Source of the DNA: Candidatus Thorarchaeota archaeon
Lineage (GTDB): Archaea > Asgardarchaeota > Heimdallarchaeia > Hodarchaeales > Hodarchaeaceae
NCBI GenBank assembly: GCA_048882505.1
Contig: JBHLRO010000004.1
Coordinates: forward strand, 213,723 to 245,722
Length of the DNA: 32,000 bases
Direction: 5' to 3'
The translations under genes and the position numbers were made by a program. Positions 18,066 to 27,747 of this stretch are shown here, one piece after another. The notes beneath the pieces were generated by a model. That model worked only from the letters and a program-made list of their open reading frames with translations. It was not told the origin of the DNA and made no database searches. Position 1 is the first letter of the stretch; every line of letters begins with the position of its first letter.

Positions 18066-21000
18066 ATGACTAAAGCCACGAAATCTACAAAAGCTCAACG
18101 TCCCAAGAGCGCCTCTAGCTCAAAGGCCGCACAGGAGAAAGTGGTAAAACGTTCCGCTGCAGACTTCTTTCAGGATAATAAAGCGATTGCTGGCTTCGAT
18201 AACACAATGCGTGTTGTTTTTACTAGTATTCGGGAACTGGTCGAGAATGGGTTGGACGCCGCGGAACGCGTTGGGCATCTACCTGAGATCAGAGTGACAA
18301 TCCAACGGCTCTCACGAGATGAAATTGCGAAGTTATTGAATGTAACTCAATTTGAATCTTCAGAAAAGATCGATTTTCTACATTTAACTGTAAGAGACAA
18401 CGGATCAGGAATCCAATCTGAATTCGTACCACCACTTTTCGGACGTGTTTTAACTGGTAGCAACTACGGTGCTCGCCAGTCTCGTGGACGATTTGGATTA
18501 GGTGCCAAAATGGTTCTTTTGAACGCTATGTCCTCAGTCGATCTTCCATTGGTTATTAAAAGTAAACATCTAAACGAGGATTTTACAAGTTACCATGAGC
18601 TTATGATTAATCTTGCAGAAAATGAACCTATCATCATTAACCGACGTGAGGTTCCCCAGGGAACAGCGGAGGCAATTCCAAACTCTGGAACCGAGGTTAG
18701 TGTAACATTCACAGGGGCCTGGGGCCTTGCTGCTCGCTATGTGTACGATTATTTCTCCCAATTAGCACTGATTACTCCTTATGCCTCCTTTTACATTCAA
18801 TTTCCAGATAGCGATGTTCCAGTCGAGATGGAAAGAGTGGTAGAAGAAATGCCTGCGTATCCTCAAATTGCAAAGGTACACCCTTGGGGAACTGATATAA
18901 CTCAGTTCAAGCGAGAACTTGCCGTAACTCGAGCTTCGACAATGGAACAGTTTCTTCAGGAGCATTTCCAGGGCATCGGCGCAAAGACAGCCAAAGATTT
19001 CCTAGAGTTCGTGGAAATCCAAACCGATAAGCCTCCCGATAAGTTGGAGGCAAGCGAAATTCGGCGTATCGTCCATGAGGGATTTGTGATGCCCGATTCG
19101 GATCCAAAGAAACGGCGTACGCAGAAATATTTTCCCTTTAAACGTCCAAGTGGTGATTCCCTTGCTCCCCTGGGAGAAAACCTATTGGTAAAAGGAATCG
19201 AAACAGAACTATCGCCTCAATTCGTGAGGGCGGCTTCCGGAGATGTTTCTGCCTATTCTGGTCATCCTTTCGTCATCGAAGCTGCTTTGGCATATGGAGG
19301 GCCAAACCTCTCTGGTGAGATAGGGAGCCCAAAGATATATCGGTTTGCAAATCGGATACCGTTATTGTTTGGGGCAGGAAATGATATTATCACAAAATGC
19401 GTCCAAAAAATGAATTGGAAGAACTACAAGATTTCAATAAATAAATCGCCTATTGCTATCGTAGTTTCCGTAGTTTCGTCAAAAATACCATTTCCAGAAA
19501 CCAGTAAGGAGTATATTGCCGATGTGGACGAACTACGGGAAGAAATAAATCGAGTTCTGCGAAAATTAGCACGGGGATTGAGTCAACATTTAGGCCGAGC
19601 TGAAAGAGAACGTCGTGAAAAACAACGACAATCCCGTTTTGAAAGCGCCGCTCCCAAAGTGTTACGTAACTTGATGAATATTGTAGAAGAGACCCCATTC
19701 ATTCTAGAATCAGATGAAGAAGTTGCAAAACTTGAAAAAGCTCTGGCATCGGCAGTTCCCAGACTTGTTCGTCGAAAATATCCGCCAAGTCCCGCCATTT
19801 CCAGTATTGGGGAATGGCTTCCCACTGAAACCTACGGAACTTTGGTCGAGAACGATTTTCAAACGATATTTCAGTTTTTAAGGGCATCTAACGCGGAATT
19901 GAGCAAAATCACAGGCTTTAGTGAGGATCGTATCGATGATATAAAGCGAAGAACGGTTAACGATAAAGAACGTTCAAAACAGGCTCCTCTTATGCGGGAA
20001 TTTGAAGTTTTTAGCAAGAATATCGAAGATGATTTTAGTAAATATCGTGACATGCTTCGAATACATAAGACATTCAATAAGCGTTGGATCGTATCGTCTC
20101 TTGATTTATTTGCAACCCCAGTTTCCCAATTAAGGAATATAGAAGGATTTCCAGAGAAATTAATCTATGAATGTAAAATTAAAGCTGTCGAAATTCGATT
20201 AAACCAGAATTCAAGCGAAACTATTACAATGGAGAACGTTGAATGGGTGACGGATGACCTTCTCAGAGGCTTTAGAAAGGCAAAAATCGATACCATATTT
20301 GATTATATAATTGGCTTCCCTGAAAAATTGGCCCAGATATCGTCCCTAAACCGTCGACTCATCGAATGGGTTAAAGACGAGATCAAGAGAGGAATTAAGG
20401 CCGGTTATATAGATCCTGAGAGCGTCATTGGAGCCGCCTCTTTTGATTGGATGGATTATAAGGTTACTCCTCGTCTTCGCGGTCGAAAAATCTCAAAGAT
20501 TAAAGAGTTTCTTCAAACACCCTCTGAAACATTAGCAGAGTTACCTGAACTGGCCGAAAATCTGATTTTGCGCTCGAAACAGCTTTTTAAAGATAAACTG
20601 GAAGATTTCAATGATCCTGACTCTCTTATGGCTATTCCTGGAATTTCTGAATACATGCAATCTGATTTGACGCGCTTAGAGATCCGTGGATTGGTTGATT
20701 TCCTTTTGAAGGGGGAGAATGAACTTCATATTGTTAGAGGTTTCACGAATCAACTTATTAACATGAAACTAGACGAGATCTATGAGGAGATCATCCAAAA
20801 CCATGAAGCCTTTCCCATAAAAAACGCTTTATGGCTGGATCCTGACTTAGAATCGAAACTTAAGAGCTACAGGATCAATTATGTTTACGATTTTGTGAAA
20901 ACTGCTTCCTCCGAGCTTGAAAAGATTAAAGGAATGGATCCCCACATTTTAAGGACAATAAAAAGTGTTTATGGAACTCCTATACCGTTTCTTACCCCAG

Positions 21001-24000
21001 CTGAAATGAAATCATTAGAATCGAAGAAAATTTTCTGTTTAGAAGAGCTTTATACAGCCGTAAATAATCAACTTCTCCCATCTGGCGCATTGCGCACCAA
21101 AGTAAAGGACCTACTGGACATCCTTTCTCAGCCAATTTGCTTTTTACCTGTTTCAAGCAAATATTACCTATTGTTTCATAATCTCGGAGTATCTAGGATT
21201 TTCGATCTACTTATTTGGAATGACGCGGATCTGCACAAAACCACGAAGGTTTCGTACCAGGTTATTGATCAGATCAAGAGTACACTAAGTTTGGATGAGA
21301 TAAGGGAGTTGATTGAAGAAAAATCAATACCAATACCTGCATTGGGCGGCAATCTAAAGGGTAAAGCGTGGGCACCTCTACTGGAATCAGGTTTAAGCGT
21401 ACAGGCTCTCTATTATGCACTTCCATATTCAACCAAAGAAATGGACGAACTTAATCTTACAGATAAGATGAGAAAACAGCTAGTTCGTTTCTTTAGAACG
21501 CCTGTGACAAATTTGCCGCAGATAAAATCGAAATGGGCTTCACGCCTCCATTCAAATGGTATTAGTACCTTTATTGAAATAATAAGTTGGTCCCGTGAAG
21601 AATTGGTGAGGATCCTAGGTCGAGAGCGTAGTTTCGTTGATAACCTTTTTTCAGAATTTCCTCCTCTTAGATCTGGAATGCCTGTAATTAGCTTAGGTGT
21701 CTTTTCGGCTACTGAAATGAAAATATTAAGAGATTCAGGGTTTGAAACGGTCGAGGACATTTATTTTGGGTTTAAAAAAGAGCTCTTTAGTATAATGGGA
21801 GTTAAATGGAAAAAAATCGAACGATACCAGCGCCGCCTCGAAACGCCAATCGCGATGCTACAGCTGGCGACAACGGCAGAGGGGTCGCAAATCCGGATCT
21901 CTCACGCGGGAATAGAGAGATTGGCGACGAATACGATCGATCAAATCATTAAACTCGTATACTGGGATGATTCGGAATTAAAAACCATTTTAAAAATGTC
22001 TGATGAGCGGGTACAAGAATTAAAAAGATCTATAGCAATTAAGGAAGAAGGAATGCCATTGGGTAGAGTCAGTGGATTTACTCGAAAAGTAGCCGCAACA
22101 CTGACCGGGTATGGCATTGAAACGGTAGAAGATCTATATTTTAGTGCATCTGAAGATATGCTGGATGAGGAAGATGACCTTCAATGGGATGTGGTTAAGA
22201 AAGCAATGGAAGCCTTGGATCTTCCCATTTCATACCTTACTGGAGTGATTCCAGATAATTATATTGAGAAATTACTTGGCAAACGCATAGATACCATTAT
22301 TCGATTCCTGATAACGTCTCCCGAGGAGCTCTCATCTGTACTCGGAACTCCAATTGATAATATCGAAAATTTCCAGCAAAAAATTAACCTTATCGATCTC
22401 CGTGAATCCGCTGAAACGTCCATTTCTATTTTGGACGGATTAAAAAGAAAGGATATTACCACATTCGCGAACGAGGGAATATTAACCGTTTTTGACTTCC
22501 TAACCAGTCCAGATGAACAGATATCAAGTGTGTTGGCCATTGATGTCAAGAAGGTGGAATCAATGAAAAAAGATATACACTTTTCAAGCATAGAGACCAT
22601 AAAGGAAGAAAAAATGATACCCTTGTCATCAATAGCTATTTTTGATCGAAAAACCGTCAAAAAACTGGCGCGCCTTGGAATAGAGAGCCTTTCTGATCTC
22701 TATTATGTTGCAACTTCAAAGAATTTGGAAGAGAGTGCGGTTGAATGGCAGGAAATTCTTGACGCCCGCATTGTGTTAGATATGCCAATAATAGCGAGTT
22801 CTGAGGTATCTCACGAGGAAATTGAAATTCTTCGTAAAGCAAAGATCGTTCGGATTTTGGATTTAATGATGGATGCTACCGAAACTCTGGAAAAGCGAAC
22901 AAAGCTCTCTAGTGATCGCATCGAAACCATTAAGAAATCGATCAACTTTAATGAAATTCTTTCCCTCATTAAAAACCTTTCTTCCCTAAAACTTGATTTT
23001 CCTCCCGATTACAAGAGAAAGATTCAGACCTTAGGCCTTCAGACTATTTACGATTTATTAGCCCATCTTGATCCTGAATTCTATTTGGGCAAGGTTAACG
23101 ATCGAGCATATCGAATAGATTCCAAAAACTGGGAATCTTTATTCTCAGTATTATCTATCCCCATTTCGTTAATTTTGGGTTTGGATCCTACAACCATTAA
23201 ATTATTAAATAAAAAACAGATTCGTACTATGAGAGATGCGCTTGTTGCGTCTGAAACAAGGCTAGAGGGTATTGAGGGTATTGAGCCAGCTGAATTTATT
23301 TCCGATCTAAAAGCCTTGAGTTTTTCTGAAATATTTCAGTTCAAACAGATACCTATGGTCTTTATCCCGAACTTACCCACCGAGTTCATTTTTCCTCTGA
23401 TCGATAATAAGATAACTAGGGTAAAGCACCTGTTGGATGCTTCTCATAGTGATGTAGCAGCAGTTTTAGAAACCTCAAGCGCGCGTGTCCGTAAAATACT
23501 TACCGAATTGAGTATGCCTATAATCATCAAATCAATGGAAGACAATTCGACTCCTCTAGGTCAGTTTTCCTCCCTTGTTTCGAAATCTACCCTACAAAAG
23601 CTTTCCAATGTTGGGATTAGCACCGTTCAAGAATTATATTTGCACGATCGTGAACAACTCAGCTATGAGGGACTCTCGGGATTATTTACTTTATTAGATC
23701 TTCCGATTAATCGGTTATCACCTGATATACCGACTGGGGATCTTAGGAAGCTGTCACAATACGGAATAAATACCCTGTTCCGATGGTTCTTAATGCCAAA
23801 TCCAAATCTTTCAAAAATACTAGGAATGGAGATCAGTGAGATAAAAGAACTCAAGAAAGAATTCGACCCAGAGACGGCTTCATCCGCCAAATTAAGTGAA
23901 ACGGATGTACCCCTAAAGGCTATCGTTGAGACGGGGTACATTGATTTTGATGAACTAGGGAAGGTTGGAATCCAAACATTAGAGGATATGCTATTTGCTG

Positions 24001-25034
24001 ATTTAGAAACTTTAGAATGCTCTGACAAGGTTAAAAAGCGCCTTAATGATCTGATTGATGCAGCAAACTCTTCATTAGCATATTATTCTTTATTAGATCC
24101 AACCTACGTCATGCCACTAGCATTTAACGGTATCACGTCCGTTAGACTATTGATTCAGAGTGATTTTTCACAGATTCGGGACAATATGGGCATCATTGAC
24201 GAAAATGAATATAATACAGCCCGTTCATCTGTGAATCTTGTTAATATTCTGACGCACAAGAAGACTGAATCCGAATTTCGCGTAAAACTGTCTTCACTAA
24301 GGGCCTTTACCCCCAAACAGCTAGAAGTGGTTCAAAAACTGGGAATAGATAATGTGGTTGACCTATATTTTCTTCTAGATCCAGATAAATGTCCTAAATC
24401 AGTAGCAGGTTCAGTGGATAGCGTCAAAAGAGTCTTAGAGAAGCCCTTTGCATCGTTAACTAGTATTAGTGCACCAAATTTAGCACCAAAGGTAGCTTTA
24501 TTATTTAACGCTGGAATTACTTCAATCATCGAATTTCTATTTTGGCCGAAATCTGATCTCGCTGAGCTCTTGGAAATTAAACGATATGAATTAAACAGGT
24601 TTAGAAAGATAAATCTTGGTGATTTAAGAAGGAAGAAGCTCGGTACCCCTCTCGAGAACTTTGTGAGACTCCCTGAAGAGTATATTAAACCTTTAAACGA
24701 ATATGGCATGGATTACATCGAAGATCTTTACTTTTACCTTAAGCGTTATCCAACACTAATACCTGACGATTCGATTCCAGGAAAAATGCGAAATGAATGG
24801 GTTAAGGATCTTGATTCGCCGATTGTGCGACTAGCGGGTTTGCCTATTCCCGTTACTCAGGAATTAATCACAAAGGGAGTAAATCGAATCATTGATTTCT
24901 TATATTGGCCTATGGATGAACTAAAACAGGTATATGGCTTATCAGAGACCAAAATAAAATCAATTAAGAAAAATGTCCGTTTAAGACGAAAAAAAGATGT
25001 ATTGGGACAACTAGACAAGTTTATGGGAGAATAG
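18066..25034 (+). CDS. top6B: DNA topoisomerase VI subunit B fused to a ~1750-aa array of HhH-like repeats
   Basis: 'RELVENGLDA', 'DNGSGI', 'RQSRGRFGLG', H2TH 'FQGIGAKTA', 'RFANRIPLLF', WKxY motif 'WKNY' and transducer 'KIPFPETSKEYI'. Start set at ATG 18066 (AGGTGG upstream) because the track's 18018 start overlaps gyrA. The frame stays open to 25034. Confidence 0.93.
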   Translation: MTKATKSTKAQRPKSASSSKAAQEKVVKRSAADFFQDNKAIAGFDNTMRVVFTSIRELVENGLDAAERVGHLPEIRVTIQRLSRDEIAKLLNVTQFESSEKIDFLHLTVRDNGSGIQSEFVPPLFGRVLTGSNYGARQSRGRFGLGAKMVLLNAMSSVDLPLVIKSKHLNEDFTSYHELMINLAENEPIIINRREVPQGTAEAIPNSGTEVSVTFTGAWGLAARYVYDYFSQLALITPYASFYIQFPDSDVPVEMERVVEEMPAYPQIAKVHPWGTDITQFKRELAVTRASTMEQFLQEHFQGIGAKTAKDFLEFVEIQTDKPPDKLEASEIRRIVHEGFVMPDSDPKKRRTQKYFPFKRPSGDSLAPLGENLLVKGIETELSPQFVRAASGDVSAYSGHPFVIEAALAYGGPNLSGEIGSPKIYRFANRIPLLFGAGNDIITKCVQKMNWKNYKISINKSPIAIVVSVVSSKIPFPETSKEYIADVDELREEINRVLRKLARGLSQHLGRAERERREKQRQSRFESAAPKVLRNLMNIVEETPFILESDEEVAKLEKALASAVPRLVRRKYPPSPAISSIGEWLPTETYGTLVENDFQTIFQFLRASNAELSKITGFSEDRIDDIKRRTVNDKERSKQAPLMREFEVFSKNIEDDFSKYRDMLRIHKTFNKRWIVSSLDLFATPVSQLRNIEGFPEKLIYECKIKAVEIRLNQNSSETITMENVEWVTDDLLRGFRKAKIDTIFDYIIGFPEKLAQISSLNRRLIEWVKDEIKRGIKAGYIDPESVIGAASFDWMDYKVTPRLRGRKISKIKEFLQTPSETLAELPELAENLILRSKQLFKDKLEDFNDPDSLMAIPGISEYMQSDLTRLEIRGLVDFLLKGENELHIVRGFTNQLINMKLDEIYEEIIQNHEAFPIKNALWLDPDLESKLKSYRINYVYDFVKTASSELEKIKGMDPHILRTIKSVYGTPIPFLTPAEMKSLESKKIFCLEELYTAVNNQLLPSGALRTKVKDLLDILSQPICFLPVSSKYYLLFHNLGVSRIFDLLIWNDADLHKTTKVSYQVIDQIKSTLSLDEIRELIEEKSIPIPALGGNLKGKAWAPLLESGLSVQALYYALPYSTKEMDELNLTDKMRKQLVRFFRTPVTNLPQIKSKWASRLHSNGISTFIEIISWSREELVRILGRERSFVDNLFSEFPPLRSGMPVISLGVFSATEMKILRDSGFETVEDIYFGFKKELFSIMGVKWKKIERYQRRLETPIAMLQLATTAEGSQIRISHAGIERLATNTIDQIIKLVYWDDSELKTILKMSDERVQELKRSIAIKEEGMPLGRVSGFTRKVAATLTGYGIETVEDLYFSASEDMLDEEDDLQWDVVKKAMEALDLPISYLTGVIPDNYIEKLLGKRIDTIIRFLITSPEELSSVLGTPIDNIENFQQKINLIDLRESAETSISILDGLKRKDITTFANEGILTVFDFLTSPDEQISSVLAIDVKKVESMKKDIHFSSIETIKEEKMIPLSSIAIFDRKTVKKLARLGIESLSDLYYVATSKNLEESAVEWQEILDARIVLDMPIIASSEVSHEEIEILRKAKIVRILDLMMDATETLEKRTKLSSDRIETIKKSINFNEILSLIKNLSSLKLDFPPDYKRKIQTLGLQTIYDLLAHLDPEFYLGKVNDRAYRIDSKNWESLFSVLSIPISLILGLDPTTIKLLNKKQIRTMRDALVASETRLEGIEGIEPAEFISDLKALSFSEIFQFKQIPMVFIPNLPTEFIFPLIDNKITRVKHLLDASHSDVAAVLETSSARVRKILTELSMPIIIKSMEDNSTPLGQFSSLVSKSTLQKLSNVGISTVQELYLHDREQLSYEGLSGLFTLLDLPINRLSPDIPTGDLRKLSQYGINTLFRWFLMPNPNLSKILGMEISEIKELKKEFDPETASSAKLSETDVPLKAIVETGYIDFDELGKVGIQTLEDMLFADLETLECSDKVKKRLNDLIDAANSSLAYYSLLDPTYVMPLAFNGITSVRLLIQSDFSQIRDNMGIIDENEYNTARSSVNLVNILTHKKTESEFRVKLSSLRAFTPKQLEVVQKLGIDNVVDLYFLLDPDKCPKSVAGSVDSVKRVLEKPFASLTSISAPNLAPKVALLFNAGITSIIEFLFWPKSDLAELLEIKRYELNRFRKINLGDLRRKKLGTPLENFVRLPEEYIKPLNEYGMDYIEDLYFYLKRYPTLIPDDSIPGKMRNEWVKDLDSPIVRLAGLPIPVTQELITKGVNRIIDFLYWPMDELKQVYGLSETKIKSIKKNVRLRRKKDVLGQLDKFMGE
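19788..25034 (+). repeat. Protein-level tandem array of ~28 HhH / RNAP-alpha-CTD / Rad51-N-like repeats (~62 aa average)
   Basis: Recurrent pattern [TM]P[IL]..[LI]..h.......L...GI.T[IV].[DE][LF][LY], e.g. SGFETVEDIY, YGIETVEDLY, EGILTVFDFL, VGISTVQELY, AGITSIIEFL, KGVNRIIDFL. I counted 28 cores by eye. The copies have diverged at DNA level. Confidence 0.85.
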
Positions 25035-25046
25035 GAGGTTTTACTT

Positions 25047-26447
25047 GTGGCTACAATCGTTATAGAAGATGCAACAGGTCTTTCAAAGAAAATTATCCAA
25101 AGCGAATTAGAGGAAGATAGCTCAGTCCGAATCATCCGAGCTCTGGTGAAAAAGGAACTCGATTTAGGTAAACAACCTTTTCAGGTGTTTTTCGGGAAAA
25201 AGCAAGACAAGAACTTTAAGGAGCTTAATGAAAGAACTTTAGATGAGTTTAAGGGGCTTAAAAAGGATAATATAGACCTGATATTGCGTATCCGAAGAAA
25301 AATTGACCTAAACAAACTTCAAAGTCTTCATAAAGTTGTTTCAGATCAGGATGTTGATCTTCCAGTAAGTGTATTGAAGGTTGATAATGTTGAGCCTTCA
25401 GAAACAAAACGCAGGTTACAAGATGTAGCTAGAGAGTTTCTTGAGGAAATTGCCGTTAATCCAGATGGAGCCGCCTTTCGAATTCCAGCCCGTAGTTCAG
25501 AAAATGTAGGGTATGATGATAGCTCAAAAATGGTTCTTTTGGGGAGTCATGTTGTTGATCGTCAGTTTCGTCATTTAAGTAGCGTTCAAGGCATTGTTCA
25601 GCTTACAGGCCTAATGCGGTACATTAATGAGATTCTTGACGCAGAAAAACATGCCACGAAGCGCCATTTATTCTATAGGGACGTGAATCTGTTCGGGAAC
25701 CAACGCGTCTCTGATACCTTGATAGAAGATTTGGGTGCCCTTCTTCGAGTATCTCGTAATTCTCTAAACGTAATTGCTTCTGCAAAAGGCAAAGTTATAG
25801 GCAGACTGACCTTTACAGAAGGTGGAGATTTCATAGATTGTACCCAGGGTTTGGGGGGGCATGCTATTACGCCTATGCTGGATCAAATAGATAATTTTGA
25901 AAGCGACGCGGAATTCGTTTTGGTAATCGAGAAAGACGCAGTATTTCAAGATCTGGCGGAAGACAAGTTCTTTAACTATATACCATGTATTTTGGTTACG
26001 GCCTCAGGTCAACCTGATATGGCCACACGTCTTTTTCTCAAACGATTGTATGAGGAGGTGAAACTTCCTATTTTAGGATTCTTGGACGCCGATCCATATG
26101 GATTGGACATCCTTCGGGTATATAGCATTGGTTCAAAGGCGTTAAGTTTCGAATCCGTTGAGATGGCGATTCCAGATATTCGTTGGTTGGGTTTACTTCC
26201 CTCAGATATAAAAGAATATCAGATCCCTAAATCGGTGCTTATCAAAATGACAGATAATGACATCAAACGAGCTGATGATCTTCTTAAGGAGGATTTCGTT
26301 AAATCACGGCCTGAGTGGGAGAGGCAAATCCAAATTATGAAGGATACGGGTCACAAGGCCGAAATTCAGGCCCTAGCTTCTAAAGATTGGCGGTTTATGA
26401 CGAATACCTATCTCCCGAGCAAGCTAGACTCTGGTAGTTGGGTTTGA
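25047..26447 (+). CDS. top6A: DNA topoisomerase VI subunit A (Spo11 family) with an N-terminal ubiquitin-like domain
   Basis: GGAGG SD plus GTG start. Catalytic Tyr in 'TKRHLFY' (codon 25674-25676), Toprim 'VIEKDAVF' and 'DADPYG', and 'KAEIQAL'. There are ~110 extra N-terminal residues. Confidence 0.95.
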   Translation: MATIVIEDATGLSKKIIQSELEEDSSVRIIRALVKKELDLGKQPFQVFFGKKQDKNFKELNERTLDEFKGLKKDNIDLILRIRRKIDLNKLQSLHKVVSDQDVDLPVSVLKVDNVEPSETKRRLQDVAREFLEEIAVNPDGAAFRIPARSSENVGYDDSSKMVLLGSHVVDRQFRHLSSVQGIVQLTGLMRYINEILDAEKHATKRHLFYRDVNLFGNQRVSDTLIEDLGALLRVSRNSLNVIASAKGKVIGRLTFTEGGDFIDCTQGLGGHAITPMLDQIDNFESDAEFVLVIEKDAVFQDLAEDKFFNYIPCILVTASGQPDMATRLFLKRLYEEVKLPILGFLDADPYGLDILRVYSIGSKALSFESVEMAIPDIRWLGLLPSDIKEYQIPKSVLIKMTDNDIKRADDLLKEDFVKSRPEWERQIQIMKDTGHKAEIQALASKDWRFMTNTYLPSKLDSGSWV

Positions 26448-26475: not shown

Positions 26476-27165
26476 TTGTTGAGACTACTGATGCTGTCGA
26501 TGTCGTTCTTCATTGTTCCAGGCTTTGAAAACATCGATCATGGGGAGGTACGTCGAATATTAGATCTTGTTCAGAGCGTCATTGCTTTCTCACAGGGCCA
26601 ACCACTACATAAGAAAGCCATTGGTAGGATCACCAAAAAATTGGGGTCTCGAATGAGTGGTAGCATATTATTTCCTGGAGGGTCCAGTGTCCTTTTTGCT
26701 TGGCGTTTCCCAATCGAAAAGATCGGGGCTGTTGTGGTAAAACCTTACTATAATGGCACAATTACCCGCCTTCTGATACATTATTTCACCCAGATTGATT
26801 ATCTCCAAACTTACACAGATAAAGACTTCCTGTCTCCCAATGGTAAGGTAATTTTACTCAATATTCCTCAAGTGGTTGGTTTCGCGAAGATCGAAACCTT
26901 CAATCGTGAATTTCCAACTTTATTGGTAGAAGAAGCGCTGGGAGAATCTATTCAAGCAAATCCGACTTTGATTCGCCAAGTAAGCGAGATTGTACGTCGA
27001 ATGGCTTTGAAAGGGCTTATTTTCGACTTTTATCCTTCAAATTGGAAACTTCATGGAAAAAAACTGACTTACGTGGATCTATTGAGCTCAAATAAACTAA
27101 AAAATCTGAGAGAAAGAATTACTCAACTATTGGAAAAGATTGAGTCTCAGACAGCGAAAATGTGA
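26476..27165 (+). CDS. Atypical protein-kinase-like fold protein (Bud32/RIO/APH-like)
   Basis: Ordered kinase motifs: Gly-loop 'PGGSSVLF', beta3 Lys 'VVVKPY', 'IPQVVG', hinge 'LLVEEALG', catalytic loop 'GLIFDFYPSNW' and 'YVDL'. The start may be ATG 26491 or 26500. Confidence 0.65.
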   Translation: MLRLLMLSMSFFIVPGFENIDHGEVRRILDLVQSVIAFSQGQPLHKKAIGRITKKLGSRMSGSILFPGGSSVLFAWRFPIEKIGAVVVKPYYNGTITRLLIHYFTQIDYLQTYTDKDFLSPNGKVILLNIPQVVGFAKIETFNREFPTLLVEEALGESIQANPTLIRQVSEIVRRMALKGLIFDFYPSNWKLHGKKLTYVDLLSSNKLKNLRERITQLLEKIESQTAKM

Positions 27166-27180
27166 CTTGCAATATTGGGA

Positions 27181-27747
27181 TTATAACTCCCCGTCACGGT
27201 AATACACTGCGCGCCTTATTGCTGAAGCAAAAGCAGTCCCGACTCCTTTTCCCGTGACCGCAGAGGTGGGAAAGTAAGGGGCATTTAATTTATCTGCGAA
27301 CCTTTGTCCGATCTCATCCTGGAATTCCCTATCTTTGATGTCAATTTTATTTGCACAAAGTACCGCTGGCACAGTTCCTAGCGTTTTCTTAACTTCTTTC
27401 ACCCAATAGGGAAGTGAAATAAGGGTTGATTCTCGTGTGACATCCGCAACGTAGATAACTGAGTGTGCTCCTTCATAGAATATGGGACGAACCTTATCAA
27501 AGGTTGGTTGGCCAGAAAGATCCCAAAAAATCGCTGTTGTATGGCCTGCAGTTTTCTCAGGTGCTCTAATTTTCAGGAAAGATATATCGGCTCCAGCAGT
27601 TGGTTTATGTTCAAAATCTCTTCTCGTAAAGACTGATACAAGCTGAGTTTTCCCTACTAAGGGATCCCCCACTATTACGATCTTGTATTGAGCATGATGT
27701 GGAATTTCAAAGAGAATTTCTTCTTGGGACATGATAAAAAACTCCAT
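27181..27747 (-). CDS. Rab-like small GTPase
   Basis: G1 GDPLVGKT, G2 PTAG, G3 WDLSGQ, 'RPIFYEGA', G4 NKID, G5 SAV. The start may be the second ATG at 27732. Confidence 0.95.
   Translation of the reverse strand: MEFFIMSQEEILFEIPHHAQYKIVIVGDPLVGKTQLVSVFTRRDFEHKPTAGADISFLKIRAPEKTAGHTTAIFWDLSGQPTFDKVRPIFYEGAHSVIYVADVTRESTLISLPYWVKEVKKTLGTVPAVLCANKIDIKDREFQDEIGQRFADKLNAPYFPTSAVTGKGVGTAFASAIRRAVYYRDGEL

Follow-up and report, generated by a model that had tools for sequence, protein, structure and literature searches.

A predicted ubiquitin-like domain at the N-terminus of topoisomerase VI subunit A in Asgard archaea with a giant B subunit

What precedes the catalytic body of topoisomerase VI (Topo VI) subunit A in some Asgard archaea, and what might it do there? 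The question is raised by a 32,000-nucleotide stretch of a Candidatus Thorarchaeota archaeon genome (contig JBHLRO010000004.1, positions 213,723 to 245,722; hereafter the window), in which the gene for this subunit, top6A, starts 12 nucleotides after the stop codon of the gene for a giant B subunit, top6B. Top6A is the archaeal counterpart of Spo11, the initiator of meiotic recombination. An initial annotation, made by eye from the sequence, had taken its first 85 residues here for a ubiquitin-like domain (UBL) and had proposed that they link Topo VI to the proteasome, Cdc48 or a partner, possibly the repeat arm of Top6B. We found that residues 1-85 are very probably an integral UBL, and tentatively suggest that the domain docks or positions the Top6B arm.

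The N-terminal extension of Top6A and its predicted fold

Homology to the Top6A core starts only at residue 119, which aligns with residue 12 of S. shibatae Top6A (2zbk_A; PDB alignment, E = 3.6e-59), and residues 1-118 are thus an N-terminal extension. The remainder has what is expected of a Top6A/Spo11 protein: an N-terminal helix (117-137), the 5Y-CAP domain with the catalytic tyrosine (TP6A_N, 184-242), a Toprim domain (290-460) with a DxD motif, in the form DADPYG (Pfam PF04406, 2.6e-18; PF21180, 2e-64, both in Top6A), and an adjacent top6B. The presumed catalytic Tyr210 is encoded at 25674-25676, and F209/Y210 and D347/D349 are invariant across 30 aligned Top6A sequences. The canonical archaeal Top6As of S. 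shibatae (2zbk_A), M. jannaschii (1d3y) and M. mazei (2q2e/9o0g) share these features, the N-terminal helix being the one that binds Top6B (E from 4e-59 to 1e-35). However, they are 369-389 amino acids (aa) long, with N-termini only about 10-40 residues ahead of the B-binding helix, whereas the window Top6A has 118 extra residues. A Pfam scan of the window protein gave no match within residues 1-100.

The initial annotation depended on translation beginning at the start of the segment and not downstream of it, and several observations bear this out. The GTG start codon is preceded by a Shine-Dalgarno-like motif (Table 1), and purine-rich GGAGG/GGATG-like motifs occupy the equivalent site upstream of orthologous top6A starts. 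The equivalent codon is ATG in the closest orthologue and in about half of all orthologues, and Top6A of the closest relatives starts Met-Ala-Thr at this codon; orthologous stop-to-stop frames are open for 0-20 codons upstream of the inferred start. Within the genus, the ratio of nonsynonymous to synonymous substitution rates (dN/dS) is 0.03-0.38 for the UBL and 0.014-0.03 for the catalytic body, by which measure the segment is clearly under purifying selection.

We compared the segment with ubiquitin at the level of sequence. A phmmer search against PDB placed ubiquitin chains on top, aligning residues 12-86 with ubiquitin 8-74, with E values for mono-ubiquitin of 0.35-0.87, which are not above chance. 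This HMMER search nevertheless recovered, independently, the register drawn by eye in the initial annotation, including the pairs ERTLDEF~GRTLSDY and DLILRIR~HLVLRLR. A profile of 22 orthologous N-termini found almost only ubiquitin chains in PDB, in the same register (mono-ubiquitin E 0.03-0.3; the E of 4e-7 for poly-ubiquitin is inflated by summed repeats). When 27 orthologous N-termini were scanned singly, the Pfam ubiquitin model PF00240 was matched by 6, UN_NPL4 by 5 (all sub-threshold, best E 0.0027) and PB1 by one (E 0.017). The N-terminus of the Borrarchaeum orthologue (L038) exceeded the curated cut-offs of both PF00240 (30.3 bits; cut-off 25.4) and PF11976 Rad60-SLD (32.3 bits; cut-off 23.8). 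As the orthologue alignment links the window domain to this Borrarchaeum domain, membership of the ubiquitin family would follow transitively for the window domain. A profile of the UBL only connects the orthologue families to each other (E values between 1e-13 and 1e-5 when the database size is set to Z = 1e6) and scores 19 bits on Borrarchaeum. When the UBL family was compared by hhalign with 22 free ubiquitins from its own class, the probability was 59%, with the correct register across β2-α1-β3. The single-sequence tests did not settle homology, so that profiles and structure were needed: BLASTP of the window UBL against the Borrarchaeum UBL was not significant, and hhalign of the window UBL against the genome's own single ubiquitin gave a probability of 9%. 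Language-model look-alike scores did not exceed 0.83 and pointed to several ubiquitin-family clusters; we treat them as leads only.

The fold was modelled with AlphaFold2. On a 22-sequence alignment the segment was predicted as β1 2-8, β2 16-21, α1 27-38, β3 45-51, β4 58-59, α2 65-73 and β5 78-84, that is, in the order β-β-α-β-β-α-β, with a predicted local distance difference test score (pLDDT) of 70-87. The full-length Top6A model (30-sequence alignment, mean pLDDT 82.4) contained the same elements, followed by a short helix (89-98), a stretch at about 100-115 with pLDDT of about 50, and the long canonical helix 117-137. With the predicted UBL model as query, the entire top 50 of a Foldseek search against PDB consisted of PB1, UBL, ubiquitin or UBX domains at probability 1.00, including the UBLs of USP4/11/15 and TBCE, ubiquitin and one UBX domain (from a UBX-p97 complex); target-normalised TM-scores were mostly 0.60-0.81 for single-domain chains. 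VIA-align, run independently with the same query against 48,161 representative chains, likewise returned a top 50 lying wholly in the ubiquitin superfold (Z 9.9-7.6, root-mean-square deviation (rmsd) 1.9-3 Å, 70-85 residues aligned), with PB1 and TBCB/TBCE-type UBLs ranking first. The β-grasp (ubiquitin-superfold) prediction for residues 1-85 is thereby confirmed at the level of structural models, both for the segment alone and within the full-length protein. By the same models, the domain is structurally closest to PB1 and integrated UBL domains, and its second helix (65-73) is PB1-like, unlike the 3-10 turn of ubiquitin.

The absence of a di-Gly tail, noted from the start, is shared by the orthologues. 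The last strand, LILRIR (compare LVLRLR in ubiquitin), continues as RIRRKIDL, with R84-K85-I86-D87-L88 following β5, and in none of the 27 orthologues is there a GG at the boundary, where all 27 keep an RRK-(V/I)-DL junction instead. In the 66 Asgard genomes that encode it (see below), the domain was seen in a single copy each, always as the N-terminus of a Top6A frame of about 465-495 aa. Residues 1-125, searched with HMMER against 1.84 billion representative proteins, gave only 6 matches, all truncated Top6A fragments, and a profile search of 301 Asgard genomes found no convincing copy outside Top6A, the weak matches (E 2e-4 to 1e-2) being unrelated open reading frames (ORFs) such as an SfsA-like gene. 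Because it lacks a di-Gly and its β5 runs into the conserved junction, the UBL is, judging from its sequence, a permanently attached domain and not a conjugatable modifier or modifier precursor.

One could also suppose that the segment is an untranslated leader or a decaying remnant that resembles ubiquitin by accident, since, taken singly, the sequence resembles ubiquitin no more than chance would allow, gives no Pfam match and evolves faster than the Top6A core. Yet 66 genomes of two classes keep an open frame and a conserved protein sequence, dN/dS is well below 1, start codons and ribosome-binding sites are conserved, the β-grasp prediction is confident and reproducible, and an orthologue scores above the Pfam thresholds. 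The conservation, the dN/dS values, the AlphaFold2 fold and the Borrarchaeum Pfam scores in effect refute the leader or remnant explanation.

Table 1. Features of the top6B-top6A locus (window coordinates)
Feature	Position	Strand	Basis or remark
Giant top6B, about 2,322 aa: GHKL, transducer, then about 1,770 aa of helix-hairpin-helix (HhH)-type repeats	18066..25034	+	ORF list, Pfam, orthologue sizes
Shine-Dalgarno-like GGAGGT	25034..25039	+	Overlaps the top6B TAG stop, 7 nt upstream of the GTG start; read in the sequence
top6A ORF, 466 aa, GTG start	25047..26447	+	ORF list and Pfam
Predicted ubiquitin-like β-grasp domain, Top6A residues 1-85, basic (pI 9.5)	25047..25301	+	AlphaFold2 models, Foldseek, VIA-align, orthologue Pfam matches, conservation and charge
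Conserved tether, Top6A residues 86-118: RRK-(V/I)-DL junction, helix 89-98, low-confidence motif DLPVSVLKVDNV	25302..25400	+	Orthologue alignments, AlphaFold2 models
Canonical Top6A/Spo11 body, residues 119-466, and stop codon	25401..26447	+	Pfam; alignment to 2zbk_A, 1d3y, 2q2e; invariant columns

Distribution of the domain and its association with a giant Top6B

The profile search of 301 Asgard genomes found UBL-Top6A in 66. These belong to families f1, f2, f3, f5, f6 and f7, all from the class of the window, and to f20, from another class; neither f4 nor about 230 genomes from other families yielded the UBL. Hodarchaeota, 'Hodarchaeum mangrovi' and B3_Heim fall within the genus of the window, and the other carriers are Heimdallarchaeum endolithica, H. 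aukensis, a metagenome-assembled genome (MAG) labelled Kariarchaeota, Borrarchaeum and Sifarchaeum. Within UBL-bearing lineages, nearly all sampled genomes have the domain. In Njordarchaeota the Top6A matches start only at about residues 88-108, indicating that these Top6As lack a UBL.

In a maximum-likelihood tree of the Top6A body, the 22 UBL-bearing sequences formed one clade (support 100/99), with Borrarchaeum sister to the rest. As read from this tree, there was one fusion event, at the root of the Top6A clade whose partners are giant Top6Bs, and one gain suffices to explain the distribution of the domain. Some carriers have a further Topo VI. In Borrarchaeum weybense (JAHQJS010000006.1; G077:C6:515000-530000), two Topo VI pairs lie within about 15 kb, one consisting of a giant Top6B (2,293 aa) and UBL-Top6A and the other of a canonical Top6B of 571 aa and a Top6A of 389 aa; contig JAECRW010000020.1 of Sifarchaeum likewise has two neighbouring pairs.

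The Top6B of the window matches Topo-VIb_trans (2.3e-51), HATPase_c and many HhH families in Pfam, and is about four times the size of a normal Top6B. The initial annotation had suggested a survey of whether such giant subunits accompany the UBL, and this association was found (Table 2). Every complete partner of a UBL-Top6A that was checked measured 2,286-4,305 aa (f1, f3, f5, f6, f20), against 543-1,123 aa for the partners of Top6As lacking the domain, with the caveat that the UBL-Top6As have one evolutionary origin. In the genomes checked, the Top6B that accompanies UBL-Top6A is 4-8 times the normal size. Together, the domain and the giant Top6B mark out the Topo VI of Hodarchaeales, Heimdallarchaeum, Kariarchaeota-labelled MAGs and Borr-/Sifarchaeia as unusual and much enlarged.

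Table 2. Size of the Top6B partner by Top6A type
Lineage	Top6A type	Top6B
f1	UBL-Top6A	2,312-2,346 aa
f20	UBL-Top6A	2,286-2,293 aa
f7	UBL-Top6A	At least 2,820 aa; frames of 2,820 and 2,532 aa may be cut by contig ends
f5	UBL-Top6A	About 3,470-3,500 aa
f3, f6	UBL-Top6A	4,148-4,305 aa
f2	UBL-Top6A	Frames of 1,323 and 1,359 aa from fragmented assemblies, possibly cut by contig ends
Other Asgard, conserved copy	No UBL	543-694 aa; 1,103 aa in one lineage
f4	No UBL	1,108-1,123 aa

Two further observations concern Top6B itself. Basic and acidic blocks of 200 aa alternate along the HhH arm, which would be surprising for an arm that bound DNA evenly over its full length. Four contigs from genomes of the window's genus (G017:C256, G009:C1, G003:C11 and G018:C117) each have one in-frame TGA or TAA in the N-terminal Top6B match, which may lie upstream of the true start.

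Position, surface and possible role of the domain

In published Topo VI holoenzyme structures, the N-terminal helix of Top6A binds the end of the Top6B transducer helix. The UBL lies about 30 residues upstream of this B-binding helix and would therefore be next to the root of the HhH arm. The tether, some 30 residues comprising a short helix and a DLPxSVLxVDN motif, joins the UBL to the helix that grips the transducer end, which would place the domain at the A-B junction, where the giant arm of Top6B emerges. There, within the holoenzyme, the role of the basic UBL would be to dock or position the arm, or DNA held by it, against the cleavage core. The contacts would be made by a hydrophobic patch around L12/F48, the basic β3-β4 loop (K52, K55 and the aromatic at 57) and R83/R84. 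This docking role is our favoured, if tentative, reading of the models and alignments; the identity as an integral UBL and the docking mechanism, taken together, we judge to fall a little short of an even chance. A complex prediction for Top6A residues 1-118 with Top6B residues of about 500-1299 scored 0.00 against a mark of 0.32, was run with no controls, and counts neither way.

The positions named above are among those conserved across the 27 orthologues (L12, L40, F48, K52, K55, an aromatic at 57, L60, R83 and R84). The β3-β4 loop is about 5 residues longer than in free ubiquitins and basic, reading KKQDKNF in the window and KKW(Y/F) in other families. In 25 of the 27 orthologues the UBL has an isoelectric point (pI) of 9.0-10.3 and a net charge of +2 to +10, two f5 orthologues being at pI 5.8-6.2; the Top6A body has a pI of 5.2.

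The tether shows a conserved motif of its own. The segment DLPVSVLKVDNV (window 25356-25391, Top6A residues 104-115) has the family form DLPxS/GxLxVDN, with P106 invariant and V112 conserved at 96%. The helix and this motif are common to conserved-type Asgard Top6As with or without UBL. The segment may be a strand that folds against Top6B, and its low confidence in the monomer model would fit folding against a partner.

Several points weigh against the docking reading and the assignment on which it builds. The window UBL reached no Pfam threshold in the single-sequence scan, and it evolves 5-10 times faster than the Top6A core. The equivalent of ubiquitin V70 is hydrophobic in the window's genus and charged in other families, so that the interaction surface is not uniformly conserved. 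Because the UBL-Top6As trace to one origin on the tree, their co-occurrence with the giant arm is a single event followed by retention. In f4 (L062, G033:C39; L031-L036), Top6B ends in a shorter HhH array of about 570 aa and there is no UBL, the f4 Top6A being about 400 aa with a Lys-rich tail; the HhH arm as such thus does not require the UBL. Finally, the arm (window 19700-25034 and orthologues) has a pI of 5.3-5.6 in f1, f5 and f6, 6.8 in f20 and 9.1 in f3. As it is acidic in most lineages but basic in f3, charge complementarity between UBL and arm is not general. As a separate observation, f4 also has another canonical Topo VI pair, which is divergent, with subunits of about 510 and 380 aa.

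The domain might instead be a ubiquitin mimic, that is, a handle for the Cdc48 N-domain, proteasome factors or ESCRT-type ubiquitin binders, through which Topo VI would be extracted or degraded, for example when present as a covalent DNA adduct. The initial annotation had noted that Asgard archaea encode ubiquitin-system components, and this genome indeed does. It has a 77-aa ubiquitin ending in TTGG (G000:C11:33441-33674; L050:1474-1707), two longer UBL proteins that end in STAG and have acidic N-terminal tails (G000:C9, L051; G000:C18, L052), and four UQ_con (E2-like) genes clustered with the ubiquitin/UBL genes in three clusters. Free ubiquitins occur in 39 of the 41 genomes of the window's class; the PF00240 search that covered these 41 genomes at E <= 1e-5 never detected the Top6A UBL. 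The ubiquitin system counts in favour of a mimic. L12 and F48, the equivalents of ubiquitin L8 and I44, are hydrophobic in 100% of orthologues; the sub-threshold matches of 5 of the 27 orthologues to UN_NPL4, a Cdc48-binding UBL, the UBX-p97 complex among the Foldseek matches and the agreement of the Borrarchaeum orthologue with the ubiquitin and Rad60-SLD models point the same way. However, the V70 equivalent is charged outside the window's genus, the β3-β4 loop (KKxDKNF or KKW) is without the FPR signature of UBX domains, and the UBL is strongly basic, unlike ubiquitin. Moreover, the ubiquitin system is widespread in Asgard archaea, whereas the UBL tracks the giant Top6B clade specifically. 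We therefore regard the ubiquitin mimic as unlikely. Its more specific form, in which Cdc48, the PAN-proteasome or a ubiquitin receptor would be recruited to pull a stalled or trapped giant Topo VI off DNA, appears rather improbable; if true, it would represent a hard-wired prokaryotic forerunner of the eukaryotic ubiquitin/SUMO-dependent removal of topoisomerase and Spo11 adducts, in the archaea nearest to eukaryotes.

The charge of the domain suggests a different possibility, namely that it contacts DNA directly and replaces a Lys-rich tail, touching the G- or T-segment by the transducer stalk independently of the Top6B arm. Besides the basic pI and net positive charge of 25 of the 27 orthologues and the conservation of K52, K55, R83 and R84, other Asgard Top6As may be cited for it: those of sister lineages without the UBL have Lys/Arg-rich N-terminal tails, which, with the HhH-bearing extension of L079 described below, suggests that this terminus favours DNA-binding add-ons. 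The two neutral or acidic f5 orthologues speak against direct DNA contact, and the conserved hydrophobic positions of exposed type fit a protein interface better. Ubiquitin-type β-grasp domains are, besides, mostly protein-binding modules. A DNA-contact role is accordingly not likely, in our estimate.

The structural searches also raise the possibility that the UBL is a PB1-like self-association domain, its front-to-back pairing linking either the two protomers of Top6A or several holoenzymes into larger assemblies. PB1 domains rank first among the structural matches (p67phox/p40phox, MEK5, NBR1, p62, Par6/aPKC; Z 9.0-9.9, rmsd 1.9-2.9 Å over 76-83 residues); they are also top Foldseek matches and share with the UBL the order β-β-α-β-β-α-β with a true second helix at 65-73. 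Yet only one of the 27 orthologues touches the Pfam PB1 model, and no conserved acidic OPCA-type motif is seen in the orthologue alignment, the equivalent hairpin being basic. The gap in Z between PB1 and other UBLs is below 1-2 and does not discriminate. Self-association of the PB1 kind is thus very improbable.

The 85-residue domain offers a testable handle on the assembly, DNA engagement or turnover of the enlarged Topo VI.

Related architectures and neighbouring genes

Outside Topo VI, the domain also resembles the integrated (type-2) UBLs of USP4/11/15 (DUSP-UBL), TBCB/TBCE, SMCHD1 and USP7 (Z 8.4-9.1), which are likewise attached β-grasp domains without di-Gly and serve as protein-protein or regulatory modules. 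Among them, the N-terminal UBL of SMCHD1, itself a GHKL-ATPase machine, has the highest sequence identity in the structural list (19%, Z 8.7). In contrast to the Top6A UBL, these domains belong to other host proteins and another domain of life, and the similarity is at the level of fold only. The free ubiquitins of the genome and class (77-80 aa) share the superfold with the Top6A UBL, whose β5 motif L-(V/I)-L-R-(L/I)-R resembles LVLRLR of ubiquitin, but they end in GG and are encoded in clusters that include E2-like genes, whereas the Top6A UBL has RRK in place of GG, the longer β3-β4 loop and a basic character. The Top6A domain adds an integrated UBL to the known Asgard repertoire of ubiquitin-like proteins.

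Lineage-specific additions to Topo VI are known on the other subunit: M. mazei Top6B has a C-terminal Ig-like domain (PMC11302465). This domain and the HhH arrays of Heimdall-group Top6Bs resemble the UBL in being placed where the transducer helix meets the N-terminus of Top6A; unlike the UBL, which is a β-grasp domain on the A subunit, they are on the B subunit and of Ig or HhH fold. A further variant occurs in L079 (G044:C63, family f11), whose conserved-type Top6A frame of 709 aa has a Lys/Pro/Ser-rich low-complexity N-terminal extension of ~350 aa. It holds two clear HhH motifs (LPGIGSK.. and VPGVGKK..), so that here HhH motifs are on the N-terminus of Top6A and not on the C-terminus of Top6B, the Top6B partner being 694 aa. 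As other lineages have Lys-rich tails, or this Lys-rich and HhH extension, at the same place, accessory modules have evidently been added at the A-B junction repeatedly.

The window copy belongs to the conserved Asgard Top6A lineage that was reported as closest to eukaryotic Top6A/Spo11 (PMC12680538). In a full-text literature search we found no type IIB topoisomerase or Spo11 homologue reported to carry a fused UBL. The fusion is not described in a survey of Topo VI distribution (PMC11302465) or in a survey of the Asgard replisome (PMC12680538), the latter being without mention of ubiquitin, and in database annotations the two Pfam domains of Top6A are the only ones given for close relatives.

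Downstream of top6A, at a distance of 28 nt, a gene for a 229-aa protein (26476-27165, +) matches no Pfam family and has relatives only within the genus. We considered it as a clade-wide partner of Top6A and rejected it, as it occurs only within the genus. The gene after it (27181-27747, -) encodes a small GTPase of the Ras/Roc family (PF00071, 1.7e-30).

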